Positions 4,503 through 56,548 of a stretch of 64,000 bases of DNA are shown here, piece by piece. A program made the position numbers and the translations under genes. A model generated the notes under the pieces. The model had not been told where the DNA came from and did no database searches. It was given only the letters and a program-made list of their open reading frames with translations. Source of the DNA: Planctomycetia bacterium (lineage in GTDB: Bacteria > Planctomycetota > Planctomycetia > Pirellulales > UBA1268). Each line of letters starts with the position of its first letter. Positions within the stretch are counted from its first letter, which is position 1. Location: contig BJHK01000018.1 in assembly GCA_014192425.1 (NCBI GenBank), positions 6,986-70,985 on the forward strand, in the 5' to 3' direction.

Positions 4503-4632
4503 GCTCGTGATGCTCGGGCCACACGGGAGCCTGGCCGACCGGGGGACCGCGGGACAGGGGGGACCGCGGGACAGGGGCCGGACTCCGCTCCCGTCCGGCA
4601 GCGGCAGGGCGGTCCCGCTGCCCACGGGTCGC

Positions 4633-25428: not shown

Positions 25429-26358
25429 ATGCCCCCCGAGGAGATCATCCCGTTGAACGCCCAGGAATCGACCGCCGGCAGCGCGGGAAGTCCGCAGGCC
25501 TGGACCGTCGGCAGGCTGCTCGCCTGGACGACTGAGTGGCTCACGGCCCGCGGGGCGGAGACGCCGCGGCTCGACGCCGAGGTGCTGCTCGCGCACGTTC
25601 GCGGCTGCCCGCGGATCGCCCTCTACACCACCTTTGACGTGCCGGTGGCCGACGATGAGCGCGACCGGTTTCGCGGCCTCGTCAAGCGGCGCGGCGGCGG
25701 CGAGCCGGTCGCCTATCTCGTCGGGAGCAAGGAATTCTTCTCTCTGCCGTTCACGGTGACCAAGGACGTGCTCGTGCCGCGGCCGGAGACGGAGGGGCTC
25801 GTGGTCCGGGCCCTCGACCTCTGCGGCGGCCTGGCGGCGCCGCGGATCCTCGACGTCGGCACCGGGTCGGGCGCGATCGTCGTCACGCTCGCCCGCCGCC
25901 TGCCGGGGGCCAGGTGCGTCGCCACCGACATCTCTCCCGCGGCGCTCGAGGTGGCCCGTGGCAACGCCGCCCGGCACGGCGTAGCTGAGCGGATTGCGTT
26001 CGTGGGCTGCGACCTGATCGCCGATCAGGCCGCGGCCGGCCCCTTCGACCTGATCGTCAGCAATCCGCCCTACGTGCGCGAGGAGGAGTTCGCGGGGTTG
26101 CCGGCGGACGTCCGGCTGCACGAGCCGCGGACCGCGCTGGTGGCGGGGCCGACGGGCGTCGAGGTGGTCGAGCGGCTGGTGGCCGCGGCGCCGCGAACGC
26201 TCGCGCAAGGGGGCTGGCTGCTCATCGAGATCGGGCCGGCCATCGCCGTGGCGGCCGAGGCGATCGTCGCGGACGCGGCCGATCTCGTGCCCGGCCCGAC
26301 GCTCCGCGACCTTGCCGGTCTGCCGCGGGTGCTCCAGGCGCGTGTCCGTCCCGCGTGA
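25429..26358 (+). CDS. prmC: Release-factor glutamine N5-methyltransferase
   Basis: The product has the SAM-binding motif ILDVGTGSGAI and the catalytic motif IVSNPPYV. It lies downstream of prfA. Confidence 0.9.
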   Translation: MPPEEIIPLNAQESTAGSAGSPQAWTVGRLLAWTTEWLTARGAETPRLDAEVLLAHVRGCPRIALYTTFDVPVADDERDRFRGLVKRRGGGEPVAYLVGSKEFFSLPFTVTKDVLVPRPETEGLVVRALDLCGGLAAPRILDVGTGSGAIVVTLARRLPGARCVATDISPAALEVARGNAARHGVAERIAFVGCDLIADQAAAGPFDLIVSNPPYVREEEFAGLPADVRLHEPRTALVAGPTGVEVVERLVAAAPRTLAQGGWLLIEIGPAIAVAAEAIVADAADLVPGPTLRDLAGLPRVLQARVRPA

Positions 26359-26640
26359 TCAGGACGGCGCCGATCAGGACGGCGCCGATCAGGACGGCGC
26401 CGATCAGGACGGCGCCGATCCAGGGATCATCAGGACAGGGGATCATCAGGACAGGGGATCATCAGGACAGGGGATCATCAGGACAGGGGATCATCAGGAC
26501 AGGGGATCATCAGGACAGGGGATCATCAGGACAGGGGATCATCAGGACAGGCACCCGGAGGGGATCATCAATCATCAATCAGGACAGGCACCCGGGGCAA
26601 TCAGGACAGGAGACATCAGAGGACAGGCACAGGACACGGC
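26357..26640. repeat. Compound tandem array: 4 x 15 bp (GATCAGGACGGCGCC), then 7 perfect x 16 bp (ATCATCAGGACAGGGG), then degenerate copies containing GGACAGGCAC
   Basis: Read directly from the sequence. The 15-bp units span 26357-26416. The 16-bp units start at 26426 and recur every 16 nt to 26537. Degenerate units run to about 26640, with exact GGACAGGCAC at 26545, 26582 and 26621. The first unit overlaps the prmC stop codon. Confidence 0.95.
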
Positions 26641-26664
26641 GACTGTCCGGGCCCCTGTCGGCCC

Positions 26665-27015
26665 CTAGTGCGGCGGGGTCTGATCGTCTGGATCAGTCTT
26701 GGTTCGCCGACGCGGTTTGCCCGAATCGTTGCGGCGGAACACCGCCACGACGTCCTCGATCGGCACGACATACAGCAGGTTGTCCTGCTCGAAATCGACT
26801 GGGATCGAGTTCTTGGGGTGAAACAGCACCTTGTCGTACTTCTCGATCGGAAAGTCGGCATCCCGCTCCACCTGCAGGCTGACCTCGACGACCCGGCCGG
26901 TGATCGTGGGGATCTCAGCTTGGTCGGGGAGGACGATGCCTCCCCGGGTTTTCTGCCGGCTCTCGTCTTTGCGGATCAGGACACGCATTCCCAGCGGTTC
27001 GACGAACTCGTCCAT
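26665..27015 (-). CDS. Divergent GroES/Cpn10-family co-chaperonin-like protein (orphan, with a basic C-terminal tail)
   Basis: The product MDEFVEPLGMRVLIRKDESRQKTRGGIVLPDQAEIPTITGRVVEV...DKVLF aligns by eye with the GroES pattern (RVLV...T.GGI.LP......G.V.AVG...GD.V.F). No groEL is adjacent. GC is lower than in the flanks. Confidence 0.7.
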   Translation of the reverse strand: MDEFVEPLGMRVLIRKDESRQKTRGGIVLPDQAEIPTITGRVVEVSLQVERDADFPIEKYDKVLFHPKNSIPVDFEQDNLLYVVPIEDVVAVFRRNDSGKPRRRTKTDPDDQTPPH

Positions 27016-27147
27016 TACACGTTTCCCTTTGGTGCGGCGACGGTTGCGGTGGGCCGTCGCGTCCGTGAGTCGACCACGGACTCTTGGTCGACGTGTTGTA
27101 CGGTACGCTTCGTCGCGTTGCCAGGCAGACATCCAGGAGGACATCCA

Positions 27148-28680
27148 GGACAGGCACAAGAAGTCCCTGGGGGTCCGAGAATGAGAGTCATTGACTGCCG
27201 GCCGCCGGAGCTATAAAGTACATATGTACAGTTTTAGAAAGTGCTTGCGGAGGTCCTGTCATGACGATGCCAAGGCGGCAGTTGGTCGATGTTGCGGTGA
27301 CGCGGTTTTACCACTGCATATCCCGTTGCGTACGGCACATGTTTTTGTGCGGTGATCGCTTTGCGCACCGTAAGGCCTGGGTCGAGTCCCGACTCGAATT
27401 CCTGTCCACGCACTTTGCCATTTCCGTCTGCGGTTTCGCGATCCTCGACAACCACCTCCACGTGCTCTGCCGGCTCGATCCTGGTGTGGCCGATGGCTGG
27501 AGCGACGAGGAGGTCGTTCGACGCTGGATTGCCGTCTATCACCCTTCCTGCCTTGACGTCGATGATCCAGACGTGCTCCAGGCATGGATCGATTATCAGT
27601 GTCGTGACGCAGGCCGCGTGGCCCGCTACCGTGAGCGGCTCCAGAATCTTGGCTGGTTCATGAAAGCCCTCAAGGAGCCACTTGCGCGGCTTGCCAACAA
27701 GGAAGAGGGCTGCACAGGCACGTTCTGGGAGGCCCGCTACAAGTCGATCGCCGTTCTCGACGAGGAGGCCCTTCTTGCGACCTGCGCCTATATCGACCTG
27801 AACCCCGTGGCTGCCGGCATCGCCAAGACCCCTGAAGCCGCACGGCATACCTCGATCAAGCAGCGAGTCGACCATGTTCGCAAACATCACTCTCTGGGAA
27901 CTCTCAAACTCGCCGCCGAGGCCCAGTCAGTTGCCGCCGCGAGAGTCGAAGCCGACCTTGAACAATCCCATTGGCTCTGCCCGCTGCAGGATCGGAGCAA
28001 GGCCGGCGCGGGACGGGAAGGCATGCTGCCCGGATTCTCTCTCTCGGGATACCTTGAGCTCGTGGACTGGACCGCCCGGCTCTGCCGCAAGGGCAAGGCA
28101 AGAATCACGGAGGAAGTGGCAGGCATCATGGCCCGGCTGGGCACGACCGCTGAATGCTGGCATTCCCGTCTTCGAAAACTCATGGCCACGACGCGTTGGG
28201 TTGGTCACTACTGTGCGACCAGCGCAGAGCGGTTACAAACGGTCGCAAGGTTGCGGGGTGTCCATCATGTGGATAACGCCCTCGGGAGCCTGGTTGCTCA
28301 ATAGCGCTGCTAACGCAATCAACGGAACAGATTGCGTCGGGAATCCCGCAAAGCATTCGATCTATACCAAGCACGAGTCCGTGCGAATCGTGGGCGGCTG
28401 GAGGCTTCGTCAACGCGGCAACGAGTTTGCCGTGCTGGGGCGGCCCTCATTCTGAGAAGTGCCCGACTCCCTGCCTCCGCAGCGAAATCTGTGGATGCAA
28501 TTCGGCTCCGGTAATCGCCCGTCATTCAACGTGCGAAAACTGGCCACTGCGGAGGGGCTTTGCGCAAGAAGCGCGCAAGAAGCGGACAGGCCTCGTGGGG
28601 GACTCGAGGGACGGCAGCAGGCAGGTATAGTGGCATAGGCGGCCATAGGACAGGCACGACCAGGGGGGCGGGACAGGCAC
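27148..28680 (+). mobile_element. Possible RayT/IS200-like mobile or domesticated unit, delimited by direct GGACAGGCAC copies
   Basis: Exact GGACAGGCAC occurs at 27148-27157 and 28648-57 (1500 bp apart), and again at 28671-28680. The interior is lower in GC and holds only the Y1 transposase-like gene. A 12-bp palindrome GTACATATGTAC lies in the 5' leader. The true element ends are not established. Confidence 0.35.
27261..28304 (+). CDS. HUH-Y1 (IS200/RayT-like, COG1943-type) transposase-like protein
   Basis: The product contains FYHCISRCVRHMFLCG, the HUH motif AILDNHLHVL, and the Tyr motif ATCAYIDLNPVAAGI. GC is clearly lower than in the surrounding genes. Confidence 0.8.
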   Translation: MTMPRRQLVDVAVTRFYHCISRCVRHMFLCGDRFAHRKAWVESRLEFLSTHFAISVCGFAILDNHLHVLCRLDPGVADGWSDEEVVRRWIAVYHPSCLDVDDPDVLQAWIDYQCRDAGRVARYRERLQNLGWFMKALKEPLARLANKEEGCTGTFWEARYKSIAVLDEEALLATCAYIDLNPVAAGIAKTPEAARHTSIKQRVDHVRKHHSLGTLKLAAEAQSVAAARVEADLEQSHWLCPLQDRSKAGAGREGMLPGFSLSGYLELVDWTARLCRKGKARITEEVAGIMARLGTTAECWHSRLRKLMATTRWVGHYCATSAERLQTVARLRGVHHVDNALGSLVAQ

Positions 28681-28918
28681 AACCAGGGGGCGCGATTTGC
28701 CCCGGAGATCGCCGGCGAAAAAATCTCGGCAGAAAAGCTTTGCCCCTGAGGCCGGTGTCGCTCGCTTTATAGGGAGGCGGATTCGCCGTCATCCCGTCAA
28801 TGGAGCGAGTGCCGTGTCACGTTTCGATCTTCACAGCGAAATCCTCGGCCGCTTTTCAGCGGCATCTTCGGCGGCATGGCACCACGGGGTCAGAGCCAAA
28901 GGAGACGTTGCGGAGAGA

Positions 28919-31696
28919 ATGGCCGAAGGAAAAGCCCGGGTGGTGGCAGCCGTCGGCCACTGGAGGCGATTGGCCGGTCGCCACGTCCGGACCGAGCCGC
29001 TTCCGAGCCGACCGCTCGTCCTCGTCGCCGCCTGCGTCGCCGCCGGCTGCGTGCTGGCCCGCGTCCTGTCCGCGATGCCGGAAAGTCACGGGGCGGGAAC
29101 TGTGGACGGAGGCTGGCCGGTCACGAGCCTCGTGGTCGGTTGGTGGTTTGGTGCCATGGCGGCGCTTGCCTTTTGGGCCGGCTGCCTGCGGCACGGCCGC
29201 CCGTGGGCCGCTGCGTTGAGCCTCGCTGCCTCGATCATGTGCACGGCCGCAGCCTGGTCGGCGGCCCGATTCGATCTTTTTCCGGCCGACGATCTGGCCT
29301 GGCAACTTCCCCCCGACGCGGCGGCCATGCCTGTCCCGGTGGCCGTGGTGGGCGTCGTCGTCGAGGCACCGCGGCCCCTCCCCTCCCCCGTGGCCGATCC
29401 GAGGCAGGCGGCGGCCATCGGCTCGTCGAGCGAGTTCATCTTCGCCGTGGAGCGGCTTCGCGACGGGGGCTGCTGGCGGGACGCATCCGGGAGGGCCGCC
29501 GTGATCGTCGACGGGGATCCGCCGGCTATGCACGTCGGCAGCCGAGTGTGTGTCTTCGGACGCGGCCTGCGGCCCACGCCGGCGCTGAACCCGGGCGAGT
29601 TCGACTTCCGGCTCCGGGCCCGCACGAGCCGCTGCCTGTCCATCATCCGGGTCCACTCGGTGGCCTGCATCCGCACCCTGGCCCCGCCCCCGTGGTGGAC
29701 GATCGGCCCGTGGATCGACCGGGTTCGCACCTGGGGCGTGCGTGTCCTCCACGACCACGTGTCGCCGGCGCGGGCGCCGCTGGCCGCGGCGCTCCTGCTC
29801 GGCAGCCGCGAGTCGCTGCCCAGGCAGGATGCAGACGACTTCCTCGTCACCGGCACCGTCCACATTCTCTCCATCTCGGGCCTGCACGTCGGCCTGCTCG
29901 CCTACGCCCTGTTTCGGCTCTGCCGCTGGCTGCTCGTGCCGCGGGGCTGGTCGCTCGTGACCGTGGCAGCCTGCACGGCGGCTTACATGCTGCTCGTTCG
30001 AGCCGAGACGCCGGTCGTGCGGGCCACGCTCCTCGTCTGGCTCGCCTGCCTCGGCGCAGCCACCGGCCGCCGGTCGCCGGCCGTCAATGCCCTGGCCGCA
30101 GCGGCCGTCGTCGTGCTCGCCTGCCGACCGGGGGAGGTGTTCGCGGCCGGCGCGCAACTGTCGTTCATGTCGACGGCGGTGCTCGTCGCCGTCTCGACAG
30201 CCCTGACGCGGACGAACGGGGAGCCGGACCCGATCGAGCGGCTCATCGACCGCAGCCGCTCGCCGGTGGAGCGGGTCATCAGGCGGCTGGCGTGGAACGT
30301 CTGGGTGCTGTTCGTCACCGGGGCCGCCGTGTGGGCCGTGTCAGCGCCCCTCGTAGCGGCCCGGTTCCACGTGCTCAGCCCGATCGGACTGGTGCTCAAC
30401 GTGCTCATCGCCCCGTTCGTGGCCCTGGCGATGGGCTGGGGAACGGCCTGCCTGGCGGCGGCGCCGCTCTCCCCCGCCATCGCCGGCGCGTGCGGCGCCG
30501 CCTGCGACGTCACGCTCGCCTGCATCGGCTGGCTCGTGTCCTGGGCGGCGGCCGTGCCCGGCGGCCATGCGTGGCTGGCGGCGCCGGCGTGGTGGTGGGT
30601 CGTCGGCTGGTACGTGCTGCTCGCGACGGTGTGCCTCGTGCTGCCACCGGCTCGTCTGGCCCGGGCCGGCACCTGGGGGGGCGTGGGGATGGCCTGGATC
30701 GTCGTCGGCCTCGTGGCGGGCGGGCTCGGTCGGCTCATGGACCCCGGGCCGGGGCCGCTCCGGGTGGTGATGGCTGCGGTCGGACATGGCTCGGGCATCG
30801 TGGTCCGCAGCCCGTCGGGCCGATGCCTGCTCTATGACGCCGGCAGGCTGGGGGCGCCGGCCGCCGCCCGCCGGGCCCTGGCGGGGGTGCTGTGGAGCGA
30901 GGGCGTGTGGCGGATCGACACGCTCGTCATCTCCCATGCCGACGCAGACCACTTCAACGCCGTGCCGCAGCTCCTCGAGCGGTTCGCCGTGGGCGAGGTC
31001 GTGGTCGCGGCCGACTTTTTGGAGAGCGGGTCGCCGGCGGTCGCCGATCTCCTGCAGCGGATCGCCGACCAGGGCATCCCGCTGCGCACGGTCAGGGCCG
31101 GAGACGAATTCGCCGTCGATCCGCACTGCCGCGTCCGCGTTCTGCATCCGGATGGCGACGATCCGGACGCCGACCCAAACGACGGGAAGGCAACCCGCAC
31201 CGGGCATCGACGGCTCGACCCCGCCGTGGCCGACAACGAGCGGAGCATCGTGCTTGCGGTCGAAGCGGCCGGCCGTCGCCTGCTCCTCACCGGCGATCTC
31301 GAGGGGGACGCCCTCGCGCGGTTCGTGGCGGCAGGGCCGGAGACCTGTGATGTGCTCGTCGCGCCGCATCACGGCAGTCGCTCCAGCCTGCCCCCCGACA
31401 TTGCCCGGGCGACAGCCCCGACCTGGGTCCTCGTCAGCGGACAGGGGGGCGCGGCCTGGCCGGAGGTGCGAGCCGCCTACGGCGCGGCGTCGGTCGGCGG
31501 TCCGGGCCGCGTCCTCAAGACCGGCGGCGCGGGTGCGATCGCGGTCGAGGCCGACGCGGCGACCGTCCTCGCGCACCAGTTCCGGGCGGGCCGCTGGCGG
31601 CCTGTCACCCCGCCCTCGCCTGTCACCCCGCCGCCGCAGGAGCGGCCTGCGAGCGCGTCAGGACCAGGCCGGCGACGATCAGGGCCAGCTGGCTGA
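28919..31696 (+). CDS. comEC: ComEC/Rec2 family DNA internalisation channel with a C-terminal metallo-beta-lactamase domain
   Basis: The core is polytopic (HILSISGLHVG motif). The C-terminal MBL domain reads MAAVGHGSGIVV...LYDAG...ISHADADH...APHHGS. The start is uncertain, with 28697, 28814 and 28919 all possible. Confidence 0.8.
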   Translation: MAEGKARVVAAVGHWRRLAGRHVRTEPLPSRPLVLVAACVAAGCVLARVLSAMPESHGAGTVDGGWPVTSLVVGWWFGAMAALAFWAGCLRHGRPWAAALSLAASIMCTAAAWSAARFDLFPADDLAWQLPPDAAAMPVPVAVVGVVVEAPRPLPSPVADPRQAAAIGSSSEFIFAVERLRDGGCWRDASGRAAVIVDGDPPAMHVGSRVCVFGRGLRPTPALNPGEFDFRLRARTSRCLSIIRVHSVACIRTLAPPPWWTIGPWIDRVRTWGVRVLHDHVSPARAPLAAALLLGSRESLPRQDADDFLVTGTVHILSISGLHVGLLAYALFRLCRWLLVPRGWSLVTVAACTAAYMLLVRAETPVVRATLLVWLACLGAATGRRSPAVNALAAAAVVVLACRPGEVFAAGAQLSFMSTAVLVAVSTALTRTNGEPDPIERLIDRSRSPVERVIRRLAWNVWVLFVTGAAVWAVSAPLVAARFHVLSPIGLVLNVLIAPFVALAMGWGTACLAAAPLSPAIAGACGAACDVTLACIGWLVSWAAAVPGGHAWLAAPAWWWVVGWYVLLATVCLVLPPARLARAGTWGGVGMAWIVVGLVAGGLGRLMDPGPGPLRVVMAAVGHGSGIVVRSPSGRCLLYDAGRLGAPAAARRALAGVLWSEGVWRIDTLVISHADADHFNAVPQLLERFAVGEVVVAADFLESGSPAVADLLQRIADQGIPLRTVRAGDEFAVDPHCRVRVLHPDGDDPDADPNDGKATRTGHRRLDPAVADNERSIVLAVEAAGRRLLLTGDLEGDALARFVAAGPETCDVLVAPHHGSRSSLPPDIARATAPTWVLVSGQGGAAWPEVRAAYGAASVGGPGRVLKTGGAGAIAVEADAATVLAHQFRAGRWRPVTPPSPVTPPPQERPASASGPGRRRSGPAG

Positions 31697-55187: not shown

Positions 55188-55229
55188 GCGAAGCCGCCGC
55201 CCGGAACGGTGCGGGAATGATCGATCGGG

Positions 55230-55335
55230 CCTGTCCCACGATCTGCCTGTCCCACGATCTGCCTGTCCCACGATCTGCCTGTCCCACGATCTGCCTGTCC
55301 CACGACCTGCCTTTCCCACGATCTGCCTGCCACGG
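55230..55335. repeat. Tandem array of about 6 x 16 bp (CCTGTCCCACGATCTG), the reverse-complement relative of the 26426 array
   Basis: Read directly from the sequence. Units start at 55230, 55246, 55262, 55278, 55294 and 55310, and the last two are degenerate. The reverse complement contains GGGACAGGCAGATCGT. The array fills the gap between two convergent stop codons (55187 and 55340). Confidence 0.95.
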
Positions 55336-55339
55336 CCCG

Positions 55340-56548
55340 TCAGCCCAGCAGGGCCGGGATGTCGTCGAGGCCGATCGTCTCCACGGCCGGGCCCGCCGGC
55401 TCGCGCAGCGTCTGCCGAGTCGGCGTGCGACAGACGACGGCCATGGCCGCCACCGCGTCGGTGCCGATCGCCTGGCGGATCCGCAGCAGGCGGCGGATGT
55501 CGGCGGTCGCCGGAAACTCGCTCCACGCGGCATCGAGGAGGACGAGGCCGCGTGGTGTGGGAACGACGAAGTTCGCCTCCTTGGTGCGATCCCGCCAGAA
55601 GGCCGGCTCGACGGCGGGCGTTGCCGCCGCCGCGAGCCGGCGGACCTCGCGATGGACGGCGGCCTCCCAGACCGCCGGCGCATGGGGCGAGGCGGCGAGT
55701 TCGTTGGCCGTGCGGATGCCGAGCAGGTGGCTGCACAGGCCGGTGTCGAGGAACTGCAGCTTCGGCGCCTTGACCAGTCCCCTGCCCTGCGGCTGTGCTG
55801 CCGGCCTGAGCAGGGAGATGATGCCCGCTTCGACGAGCGTGTCGAGCCAGATCGCCGCCGTGGAGCCGGCGATGCCGACCGCGCGGGCGAGCTCCGCCTT
55901 GTTGAGGATGCGACCGCTGCGCAGGGCCGCGGCGCGGAGGAACCGCTCGAAGGCGTGGACGCTGTCGACGCGGAGTTGTTCGGGGAGATCGCGCACCAGG
56001 TGGTCGGCGACGAGGTCGCGCATGAAGCCGGCGATGTCCGGCTCGGCGTCGGCATGCAGCGCCGGAAACCCGCCGCGCAGGAGCCGCTCGGCCAGGGGCA
56101 GATCGGGACGGGCGGCGGACGCCTCGGCATGCGACAGGCCATCGAGCCGGATCAGGGGAGCCCGGCCGGAAAACGCCTCGTCGGCCGCCGCGGCGAGCAG
56201 CACGGGCCGGCAGCCGACGAGCACGTAACTGGCCGGCGGCAGCGGCTGCTGGGCAAGCAATCGGCCGAGGTGGTGGATGAGCCGCGGTGCGAGGTGGACG
56301 TCGTCGATCACGACCGGCGGAGGGTGGTCGGCGAGGAAGGCTGCGGGGTCGAGGTGGGCTCGGGCGGCGTCACTTGGGAGGGCCAGCGCGACGCGTCGAT
56401 GGAGAGGATGGAGAGAGGTGGCAAGATGGGTTTTTCCGCAGGCTCGTGGACCGGTGATGGTGAGGCAAGGGTGTTGGGCGCGGTCACGTACTGTTTGATG
56501 GGCAACATGACGTTCGATAAAAACGACATTATTCATCGACGTTATCAA
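55340..56548 (-). CDS. AAA-type ATPase with a DUF4143-like C-terminal domain
   Basis: The Walker A motif is ITGPRACGKTH and the Walker B-like motif is PVVIDDVH. The C-terminal ...NFVVPTPRGLVLLDA resembles the restriction-endonuclease-like DUF4143 module. The 5' end and leader are AT-rich. Confidence 0.8.
   Translation of the reverse strand: MITSMNNVVFIERHVAHQTVRDRAQHPCLTITGPRACGKTHLATSLHPLHRRVALALPSDAARAHLDPAAFLADHPPPVVIDDVHLAPRLIHHLGRLLAQQPLPPASYVLVGCRPVLLAAAADEAFSGRAPLIRLDGLSHAEASAARPDLPLAERLLRGGFPALHADAEPDIAGFMRDLVADHLVRDLPEQLRVDSVHAFERFLRAAALRSGRILNKAELARAVGIAGSTAAIWLDTLVEAGIISLLRPAAQPQGRGLVKAPKLQFLDTGLCSHLLGIRTANELAASPHAPAVWEAAVHREVRRLAAAATPAVEPAFWRDRTKEANFVVPTPRGLVLLDAAWSEFPATADIRRLLRIRQAIGTDAVAAMAVVCRTPTRQTLREPAGPAVETIGLDDIPALLG

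Follow-up and report, generated by a model that had tools for sequence, protein, structure and literature searches.

A stretch of 64,000 nucleotides from a Planctomycetia bacterium (contig BJHK01000018.1, positions 6,986 to 70,985; here the window) contains an intact gene for an HUH-Y1 nuclease/transposase at positions 27261..28304 of the plus strand, set among copies of a short repeat. Judged by comparison of related loci, the repeat is a 9-10-nt word, GGACAGGCA(C/T), that serves as the cis site of this gene family and marks the outer boundary of the unit carrying the gene. The motif is probably the site on which the encoded enzyme acts, the two forming a cognate pair, and the repeat arrays of the window would then be by-products of DNA processing at that site. 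The Y1 gene was acquired horizontally and arrived with its own cis site.

The evidence that carries this finding is the co-occurrence of motif and gene. We collected 29 genome loci (L001-L029) by protein similarity alone, 18 of which include upstream DNA. In all 18 planctomycete loci with upstream DNA, GGACAGGC is found on the gene strand, 83-231 nt 5' of the ATG. In planctomycetes the motif usually reads AAAAGGACAGGCATAATCC, with the -35 box of a TTGACG-N17-TAGGAT promoter immediately after it. It is often present in 2-10 copies, and its distance from the gene is fixed at about -85 in most loci. Conservation between loci starts exactly at the motif, and no alignment extends further upstream. 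Among the gammaproteobacterial homologues, whose upstream regions are otherwise unalignable, 7 of 9 have [AG]GACA[GC][GAC]CA at -70 to -153. The form is GGACAGGCA and GGACAGACA in Vibrio, GGACAGACA in Photobacterium, AGACAGGCAC in Catenovulum, AGACACCCA in Pseudoalteromonas and Shewanella, and GGACACCCA in Aeromonas. The complete 220-kb replicon pMA35 of Vibrio tritonius holds 14 motif matches, compared with 2.1 expected, and 9-10 of these surround one Y1 gene (5 upstream on the plus strand, 4-5 inverted downstream). A second, diverged Y1 paralogue on pMA35 is accompanied by a different variant, GGACACACA, which argues for protein-site pairing and not for a host factor. Because the 9-nt word stands beside the gene in two phyla and its variants follow the paralogue, we regard it as a cis element of the gene family rather than a host repeat. 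A first-pass annotation of the window had suggested, by analogy with REP-associated tyrosine transposases (RayTs; REP, repetitive extragenic palindrome), that this gene is the enzyme of the repeat family. The tie between gene and repeat stands, in 18 of 18 loci and in homologues of 36-39% identity; the strict RayT/REP analogy does not.

The motif also delimits the unit on its far side. Direct copies bracket the gene in the window and in L001, L010, and L108. Inverted copies lie 200-830 nt past the stop codon in four more diverged planctomycete members (L014, L017, L021, L024) and in Vibrio, Photobacterium, and Pseudoalteromonas Bsw. No target-site duplications were found at the inverted-type copies of L017, L021, and L024.

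In the window, GGACAGGCAC occurs exactly six times, on the plus strand only (26545, 26582, 26621, 27148, 28648, and 28671), with 0.30 expected; this count was reached in 0 of 100 shuffles. The first-pass annotation had correctly located the copies at 27148 and 28648, 1500 bp apart in the same orientation, and that at 28671, and had missed a variant copy, GGACAGGCC, at 28584. It had also described a 22-bp duplicated unit at the right-hand pair. The duplication is there, with a period of 23 and a common unit of 20 nt carrying one mismatch, GGACAGGCAC[G/A]ACCAGGGGG. These two head-to-tail 23-nt units, with GGACAGGCAC first in each (28648..28690, plus strand), form the right end of the Y1 unit and are invariant in L030-L034. 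The variant copy follows (GCGCAAGAAGC)x2 in a segment at 28562..28592 (plus strand) that is kept in L172, a relative with 98% protein identity. At the left junction (27128..27157, plus strand), a local tandem duplication, (GACATCCAGGAG)(GACATCCAG)GACAGGCAC, abuts the motif copy at 27148-27157. The Y1 unit, at about 27148-28690, reads as motif, promoter, gene, a 340-nt tail, and more motif copies.

Further copies are built into arrays. A 16-nt tandem array, GGGATCATCAGGACAG x8.1, occupies 26423..26551 (plus strand); in each unit, local sequence of 10 nt is joined to GGACAG, the initial 6 nt of the motif, and the last unit merges into a full GGACAGGCAC. It is continued at 26541..26660 (plus strand) by degenerate units with the full motif at 26545, 26582, and 26621, the final one of which is kept in all strains. 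A second array of the motif family, (AGATCGTGGGACAGGC)x6.3 in minus-strand reading, is located 27 kb away at 55229..55329, between convergent genes. A possible third member, (GGGGGACCGCGGGACAG)x2.2 at 4541..4577 (plus strand), is intergenic and contains GGACAGG without the GCA part, so that its membership is uncertain.

At many motif copies we observe the trace of a local duplication. Copies tend to follow a tandem duplication of 7-17 nt whose sequence differs from site to site and in many cases takes in the leading 1-7 nt of the motif. When we counted duplications with an end between -2 and +5, 50 of 256 motif sites had one, as did 16 of 4462 control positions within the same sequences (20% versus 0.4%; odds ratio 67, P 2e-51). 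Examples of this scar are (aatgtagggaaaGGACA)x2 in L058, (acagaaaaGGACA)x2 in L098, and (gaccggaaaag)x3 in L067. It appears as (aaaccccata)x2 before AGACAGGCAC in Catenovulum and as (AACCTTATCG.)x2 before GACAGACAC in Vibrio. In elements of the inverted type (L017, Vibrio) the scar lies on the outer side at both ends, so that it keeps to the polarity of the motif, not to that of the gene. The 16-nt array of the window, its left gene junction, and the copy at 28584 fit this scar pattern in an iterated form.

The repeat tracts change quickly between strains. An identical Y1 protein, with likewise the same neighbours, is found in 7 other metagenome contigs, and the unique DNA of these strains is about 99.5% identical to that of the window, yet all repeat tracts differ. 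The x8 form of the 16-nt array is seen in the window strain only; other strains have 4 GGACAGG copies in different arrangements, and at the array position the other assemblies contain Ns or end. L032 and L033 carry four copies of a 21-22-nt unit, CAGGACAGGCACAAGAAGTCC(T), 5' of the gene where the window has one, and their left array is built differently. The left-junction duplication (27128-27157) is itself polymorphic, with 1 unit in L172 and 3 in L032. In L172 and L173, whose proteins are 98% identical to that of the window, we find yet another arrangement from which the long array is absent, and L174 (91% protein identity) retains GGGACAGGCAC at -120. The large array to the left, which the first-pass annotation had noted beside the islet, belongs to the same repeat family. 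The GATC content and 16-bp period in which that annotation saw the form of the repeats are local accidents of the window strain and not features of the family. A separate strain-specific microduplication, (GAGGACTCGGGCATA)x3, was seen in L172 directly 3' of the motif copy GGACAGGCC (L172:3330-3392), where it replaces the window's 28593-28647 spacer.

Adjoining the 16-nt array is a 15-nt array, GATCAGGACGGCGCC x4.3 (26357..26420, plus strand), whose first unit begins in the prmC stop codon (cgcgTGAtcagg; window 26355-26420). It is single or absent in the sister strains L032, L172, and L173. Because the sister strains have one terminator-like palindrome, GATCAGGACGGCGCCTGTCC, at the same place instead of the array, the 15-nt array grew from the prmC terminator.

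From comparative sequence we infer that the protein binds and cuts the motif and that the resulting breaks cause the duplications. The enzyme would bind and cut the strand reading GGACAGGCA, with no need for a hairpin of the REP type. Forks would stall or breaks recur at the motif, and their repair by microhomology-mediated copying would leave a short, site-specific tandem duplication that either lies immediately 5' of the motif or shares the motif's first bases. Iteration of this step would produce head-to-tail arrays such as those at 26357-26630 and 55229-55329, which would differ among strains, and motif copies could be seeded at new sites with or without the promoter.

The main rival to this explanation, which we consider unlikely, gives the motif a purely transcriptional role, as an operator or activator site by the -35 box that was inherited with the gene and on which the enzyme is inactive. 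Extra copies would then be partial duplications of the 5' region, and the arrays would be products of ordinary slippage. In most loci, including Aeromonas and Pseudoalteromonas, the motif ends 6-8 nt before TTGAC, and an operator would explain the fixed spacing to the promoter. Many extra copies are indeed stubs made up of motif, promoter, 5' untranslated region (UTR), and the gene's initial 20-40 nt (L098:1-500, L046, L043, L108:72-184). However, the inverted copies that follow the gene at 200-830 nt in both phyla have no promoter role, and the arrays between convergent genes at 26357-26630 and 55229-55329 are promoter-less. An operator likewise does not account for a scar that lies outside each of the two inverted ends, or for motif variants that follow the paralogue inside one replicon.

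Several observations weigh against our explanation nonetheless. The relation of protein to motif is drawn from comparison, and the position of the motif 5' of the -35 box in most loci means that it could be a transcriptional operator instead of, or besides, a cleavage site; in the clade of the window it lies about 33 nt farther from the -35 box than in other loci. The duplications end anywhere from -2 to +7, a scatter expected of microhomology, and no precise cut site is readable from them. On pMA35, the one complete replicon examined, the motif is mostly restricted to the flanks of the gene, so that genome-wide dispersal is modest there, and some loci recovered by motif scanning are chance matches in unrelated low-GC contigs. 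The AlphaFold2 model of the protein is also weak overall (mean pLDDT, predicted local distance difference test, of 61, with the C-terminal 80 residues below 50).

The 5' region of the gene in the window has a predicted sigma-70-like promoter, TTGACT-17-TAAAGT (27191..27219, plus strand), which matches the homologues' conserved promoter in the alignment and is the sole promoter-like site within 26300-28950. Just past the predicted -10 box, at 27218-27229, is a perfect palindrome, GTACATATGTAC, retained in L172 and nearly retained in L174 (TACATGTGTAC); the corresponding sequence in the other clade is ATACGGGCGTTCAGTAC. This palindrome may be an operator or a structure of the 5' UTR.

We next consider what the repeats are as DNA. 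Eleven motif regions folded as single-stranded DNA gave z-scores of -1.99 to +2.20, none clearly better than shuffles. The lowest value belongs to the gene-proximal motif copy, and the arrays are less structured than their shuffles: neither the 16-nt array (z +0.68) nor the array at 55229-55329 (z +2.2) has hairpin potential. The segment at 26541-26660 terminates in a weak GGACAG...CTGTCC inverted repeat adjoining the stop codon of the GroES-like gene described below (z -0.94). Of the 113 pairs of neighbouring motif copies that lie no more than 400 nt apart, 107 are direct, with 3 pairs each in convergent and divergent orientation. No GTAG foot was found in the motif repeats. The repeats are not REPs: they are not palindromes, and they cluster head-to-tail. 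The first-pass annotation had already remarked that they differ from the hairpin-forming REP and bacterial interspersed mosaic elements, and the hairpin potential for which it proposed testing the flanks did not clearly appear in any of the folded regions.

These results bear on the possibility that the window holds a classical RayT/REP system, or REPtron, in which a single-copy domesticated gene maintains hairpin-forming REPs. In its favor, the fold of the protein is nearest to E. coli RayT, the homologues are labelled RayT by JGI and COG, and the gene is flanked by short repeats of its own. The excess of direct over inverted pairs (107 versus 6), together with the missing GTAG foot and the lack of significant hairpins, contradicts such a system on its defining repeat structure. 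The protein also scores 38.3 bits against the NCBIfam model REP_Tyr_transpos (NF047646), for which the cutoff is 80, in a match limited to residues 132-192. Neither is the family single-copy, a trait that the first-pass annotation would have counted as support for a RayT-like role. Several metagenome-assembled genomes (MAGs) have multiple copies (UBA4655 at least 4 loci, BJ22 4, another MAG 2; 75-93% identical at the DNA level), and the gene is patchily distributed, with relatives of 76% and 83% PrmC identity lacking it at the syntenic position. We therefore hold a REPtron to be very improbable. E. coli TnpAREP (PDB 4ER8) and our system do have in common the HUH-Y1 fold and short flanking repeats, presumed to be the substrate, that also occur elsewhere. 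REPs, unlike the motif, are imperfect palindromes with a 5' GTAG foot that are recognized as hairpins, mostly as inverted pairs, and number hundreds of copies, and RayTs, unlike the protein studied here, are about 150-200 aa long and mostly single-copy.

The protein itself is encoded by an open reading frame (ORF) of 347 aa with the HUH motif NHLHVL at residues 64-69 and the Tyr motif YIDLNPV at residues 177-183. Both had been pointed out in the first-pass annotation, and H65, H67, and Y177 are invariant among 18 homologues of 63-81% identity. The Pfam model Y1_Tnp (PF01797) covers only the Tyr half, with 18.6 bits, below the cutoff of 23. Searches of the PDB by sequence, with the single protein and with a profile, gave no meaningful match, and it was the fold search alone that tied the protein to RayT. 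Foldseek with the core of the AlphaFold2 model (residues 41-140, pLDDT 73-95) returned E. coli RayT with bound REP hairpin, 4er8_A, as the top match (E 3.2e-4, probability 1.0, TM-target 0.60), followed by the TnpA proteins of IS608, ISDra2, and IS200. The label RayT/IS200-like given by the first-pass annotation is thus right as to the HUH-Y1 class and the nearest fold; as a classical RayT or IS200 TnpA the protein misses the cutoffs. Its homologues in metagenomes number more than 2800, are of near-constant length (about 347 aa) and 60-98% identity, and form a large planctomycete clade; in a full protein scan, 8918 cluster representatives came within E 1e-3. Searches of plasmids and chromids with tblastn found matches of 36-39% identity over 85-94% of the query (E 1e-45 to 2e-57) in Pseudoalteromonas, Shewanella, Catenovulum, Vibrio, Photobacterium, and Aeromonas.

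An ordinary IS200/IS605 element with hairpin ends, next to or inserted into GGACAGG repeats that are host minisatellites, would also yield an HUH-Y1 fold match. It would agree with the multiple copies, with contigs that frequently break at the Y1 gene, with a gene GC content below that of the host (about 60% versus a background of 72%), and with the absence of the gene from relatives. Like the TnpA proteins of IS608 and ISDra2, the protein has an HUH-Y1 core, a promoter beside the left end of its unit, and a presumed strand-specific chemistry. However, it is 347 aa long, twice the length of the ~150-aa TnpA, with NHLH and YIDLNP in place of DH[VI]H and Y[IV]ENQ. The unit lacks subterminal hairpins, tnpB, and any identifiable arrangement of a short conserved target plus guide. 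Intragenomic copies are only 81-93% identical, homology between copies of 75-93% DNA identity spans the motif to the stop codon only, and conservation of the motif with the gene in two host phyla means that it is not a host repeat. An element of this kind is, in our judgment, highly unlikely.

Instead, the protein fits, on its sequence features, subclass 2.3 of TnpAY1, as a relative of RayT that is neither a strict RayT nor an IS200 TnpA. In Table 1 of Quentin, Siguier, Chandler & Fichant (2018), subclass 2.3 is characterized by NHYH, WE, and YVDLNP with 110 aa between HuH and Y, a 55-aa insertion after beta3 (beta3-alphaC), a TS motif, a length of about 325 aa, and 3.9 copies per genome (PMC6006769). 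The window protein has NHLH, FWE, and YIDLNP, a distance of exactly 110 from H67 to Y177, HTS at 196-198, and an extra segment at about 72-127; the middle residue of its HuH is L where the subclass signature has Y. It shares with the subclass, in sum, a length of about 325-347 aa, NH[Y/L]H, WE, and Y[V/I]DLNP, the 110-aa spacing, an insertion of about 55 aa, the TS motif past the core, a subclass-specific C-terminal domain, several moderately identical copies per genome, and 36-39% identity with members from Alteromonadales and Vibrionales. The assignment is made from signature, length, and this homology. The subclass was described mainly from Chromatiales and Alteromonadales, with no known function listed; its REP entry is "no", and automatic and manual searches found no repeats for subclasses 2.1 and 2.3 (PMC6006769). 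Unlike the subclass as described, the family studied here includes a large planctomycete clade (the more than 2800 proteins above), and a hairpin-less 9-10-nt motif flanks its genes in both phyla. We disregarded the taxonomic labels of several MAG contigs for any claim of transfer between classes. Examples of misfits are L001, L006, and L011, labelled 'Candidatus Kuenenia' at 66-69% GC, L010 (Crocinitomicaceae), and L017 (Chloroflexia). These are probably binning or labelling errors, so that a host range based on such labels is unreliable.

Motif copies are not confined to the surroundings of the gene. Scanning metagenomes with AAGGACAGGCATAATCC gave at least 120 matching stretches, 80 of which were made into loci (L037-L116); these loci were selected through the motif itself. 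In about 28 of the 80, a Y1 gene follows the motif, which stands at about -85; the others lack Y1 in the fetched DNA. Many of the Y1-less loci are planctomycete-like and show a purine-rich duplication scar (L090, with 8 copies, L076, L064, and L091). Two of them, L064 (899-1170, two plus-strand copies facing two on the minus strand) and L091 (12339-12442, one each), contain convergent copies 96-198 nt apart with A-rich outer flanks and no gene inside, resembling miniature elements of the inverted type. The stubs described above can stand in tandem (ATGACGATGCCCAGGCGGCAGCTG...), each cut off and followed by a new scar and motif, and in L108 the Y1 gene is flanked by direct 113-nt copies of the stub module. 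IMG/VR viral contigs contain no exact match to the 17-nt motif and so point to no vehicle of phage or plasmid-like type.

In Pirellulales-like contigs, Y1 genes or motif copies often adjoin RHS/YD-repeat toxin genes. Five loci (L098, L039, L046, L050, L057) have the motif and TTGAC fused to a 5'-truncated RHS ORF at the identical residue (GGVGNGNLTK), the ORF starting 15-27 nt 3' of the motif. In L098 (333-3845) the fusion is followed by a toxin tip and then a small ORF. RHS sequence is additionally present in L012, L027, L037, L066, L073, L095, L097, L100, and L108. The fusion may be a mobile promoter/cassette junction or one inherited event.

One could imagine from such junctions that direct motif copies are paired cleavage sites for initiation and termination, in a rolling-circle-like manner, with the intervening DNA released as a single-stranded circle and re-inserted at another motif copy. 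Cassettes would be shuffled in this way, including promoter modules and RHS toxin fragments. The bracketing of the gene by direct copies in four loci, the joining of the motif to unrelated downstream families that include the truncated RHS ORFs, and the gain or loss of units between motif copies in L032 relative to the window all agree with this idea. However, neither a circle junction nor a precise cassette polymorphism was seen, the RHS junctions may have one ancestry, and slippage or unequal recombination would account for the gained and lost units just as well. We regard paired cleavage as quite unlikely. A broader proposal, on which we are only tentative and which we would not call likely, is that subclass 2.3 enzymes as a whole recognize a hairpin-less 9-10-nt word, generate hypervariable arrays, and move promoter-bearing cassettes, including orphan RHS modules. 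Cassette movement would proceed through paired direct sites, and repeated cutting would drive the microhomology-mediated tandem duplication.

The site in which the Y1 unit of the window resides has a history of its own. As noted in the first-pass annotation, it is a lower-GC islet: GC content is 0.56-0.64 from about 26350 to 28900 and 0.70-0.78 on either side. An orphan GroES-like (Cpn10) gene, also recognized there, lies at 26665..27018 on the minus strand (Pfam Cpn10, E 4e-17). Its product has a basic C-terminal tail and scores 46 bits against the NCBIfam GroES model, the cutoff being 109. Homologues of this protein are encoded at L162:7999-8349 and L019:450-727, the latter about 5 kb from the Y1 gene of L019. 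In L165 (76% PrmC identity) the order is rpmE-prfA-prmC, 145 nt, comEC, and ccsA/resB, with neither the GroES-like gene nor Y1. The 14.9 kb of L165 contain one isolated GGACAGG, which lies about 6.5 kb away from prmC on the minus strand and could be due to chance. In L162-L164 (83% PrmC identity), prmC is followed after 93 nt by the GroES-like gene, without Y1 or motif, and then by other DNA; there is no GGACAGG within 9.3 kb. Homology with L162 stops at about 27125, which is the left junction, and homology with L165, in the prmC-comEC spacer, restarts at about 28737. The right junction (28696..28750, plus strand) has TTTGCCCCGGAG and TTTGCCCCTGAG 43 nt apart. The low-GC insert between prmC and comEC thus measures about 2.4 kb (26359 to about 28737), and the gene orders of the relatives together with the two homology breaks (27125, 28737) indicate that the islet is real and composite. 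The GroES-like gene is the older part of the insert. The Y1 unit, bounded by direct motif copies, was added later, and the array between prmC and the GroES-like gene arose only in the lineage carrying the Y1 unit.

The non-coding tail of the Y1 unit (28305..28561, plus strand) is about 97% kept in L172, partly in L174, and not in other loci. A search of 26200-29000 against Rfam returned only a chance match to RsmY (E 0.92), and the tail has no Rfam family. At the distant array, an AAA_14/DUF4143 ATPase gene (55340-56536, minus strand) adjoins the GGACAGGC repeats, and its upstream region is lower in GC. L161 is the sole other contig with this gene, and it ends at the array.

The closest precedent that we found is the TIRtron, or TIRYT, for which Di Nocera, De Gregorio & Rocco (2013) describe RAYT-like genes with flanking inverted repeats of their own that are not REPs, with copies elsewhere (PMC3733652). 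Some of these terminal inverted repeats (TIRs) share GGGGWSAS at a fixed distance from the gene, and elsewhere the repeats occur singly, as dimers, or clustered; R. baltica is named among the repeat-rich genomes (PMC3733652). GGGACAG, GGACAG, and AGACAC agree with the TIR sequence GGGGWSAS at 6-7 of 8 positions, a lead rather than a test because only the published consensus was compared. The inverted flanking copies of L014, L017, L021, L024, Vibrio, Photobacterium, and Pseudoalteromonas Bsw are TIRtron-like, and those of the window clade are direct. Head-to-tail arrays, a duplication scar, and strain hypervariability are not described for TIRtrons there. The motif system and TIRtrons are probably the same phenomenon seen from another angle.

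A literature search for the motif string returned primer sequences only. What appears to be new here is the link between subclass 2.3 and a defined hairpin-less motif across phyla, and also the head-to-tail arrays, the duplication scar, and the strain-level dynamics. Subclass 2.3 is one of the larger RayT-like branches, and a motif common to its planctomycete and gammaproteobacterial members provides a concrete, testable DNA substrate for the family. If the enzyme does cut a plain 9-10-nt word and not a hairpin, this would widen the recognition known for Y1 enzymes. The scar would then be a rare tie of a specific protein-site pair to minisatellite formation and strain-level variation in bacteria. 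The system may find use in strain typing and in understanding the intergenic repeat arrays of high-GC Planctomycetota.

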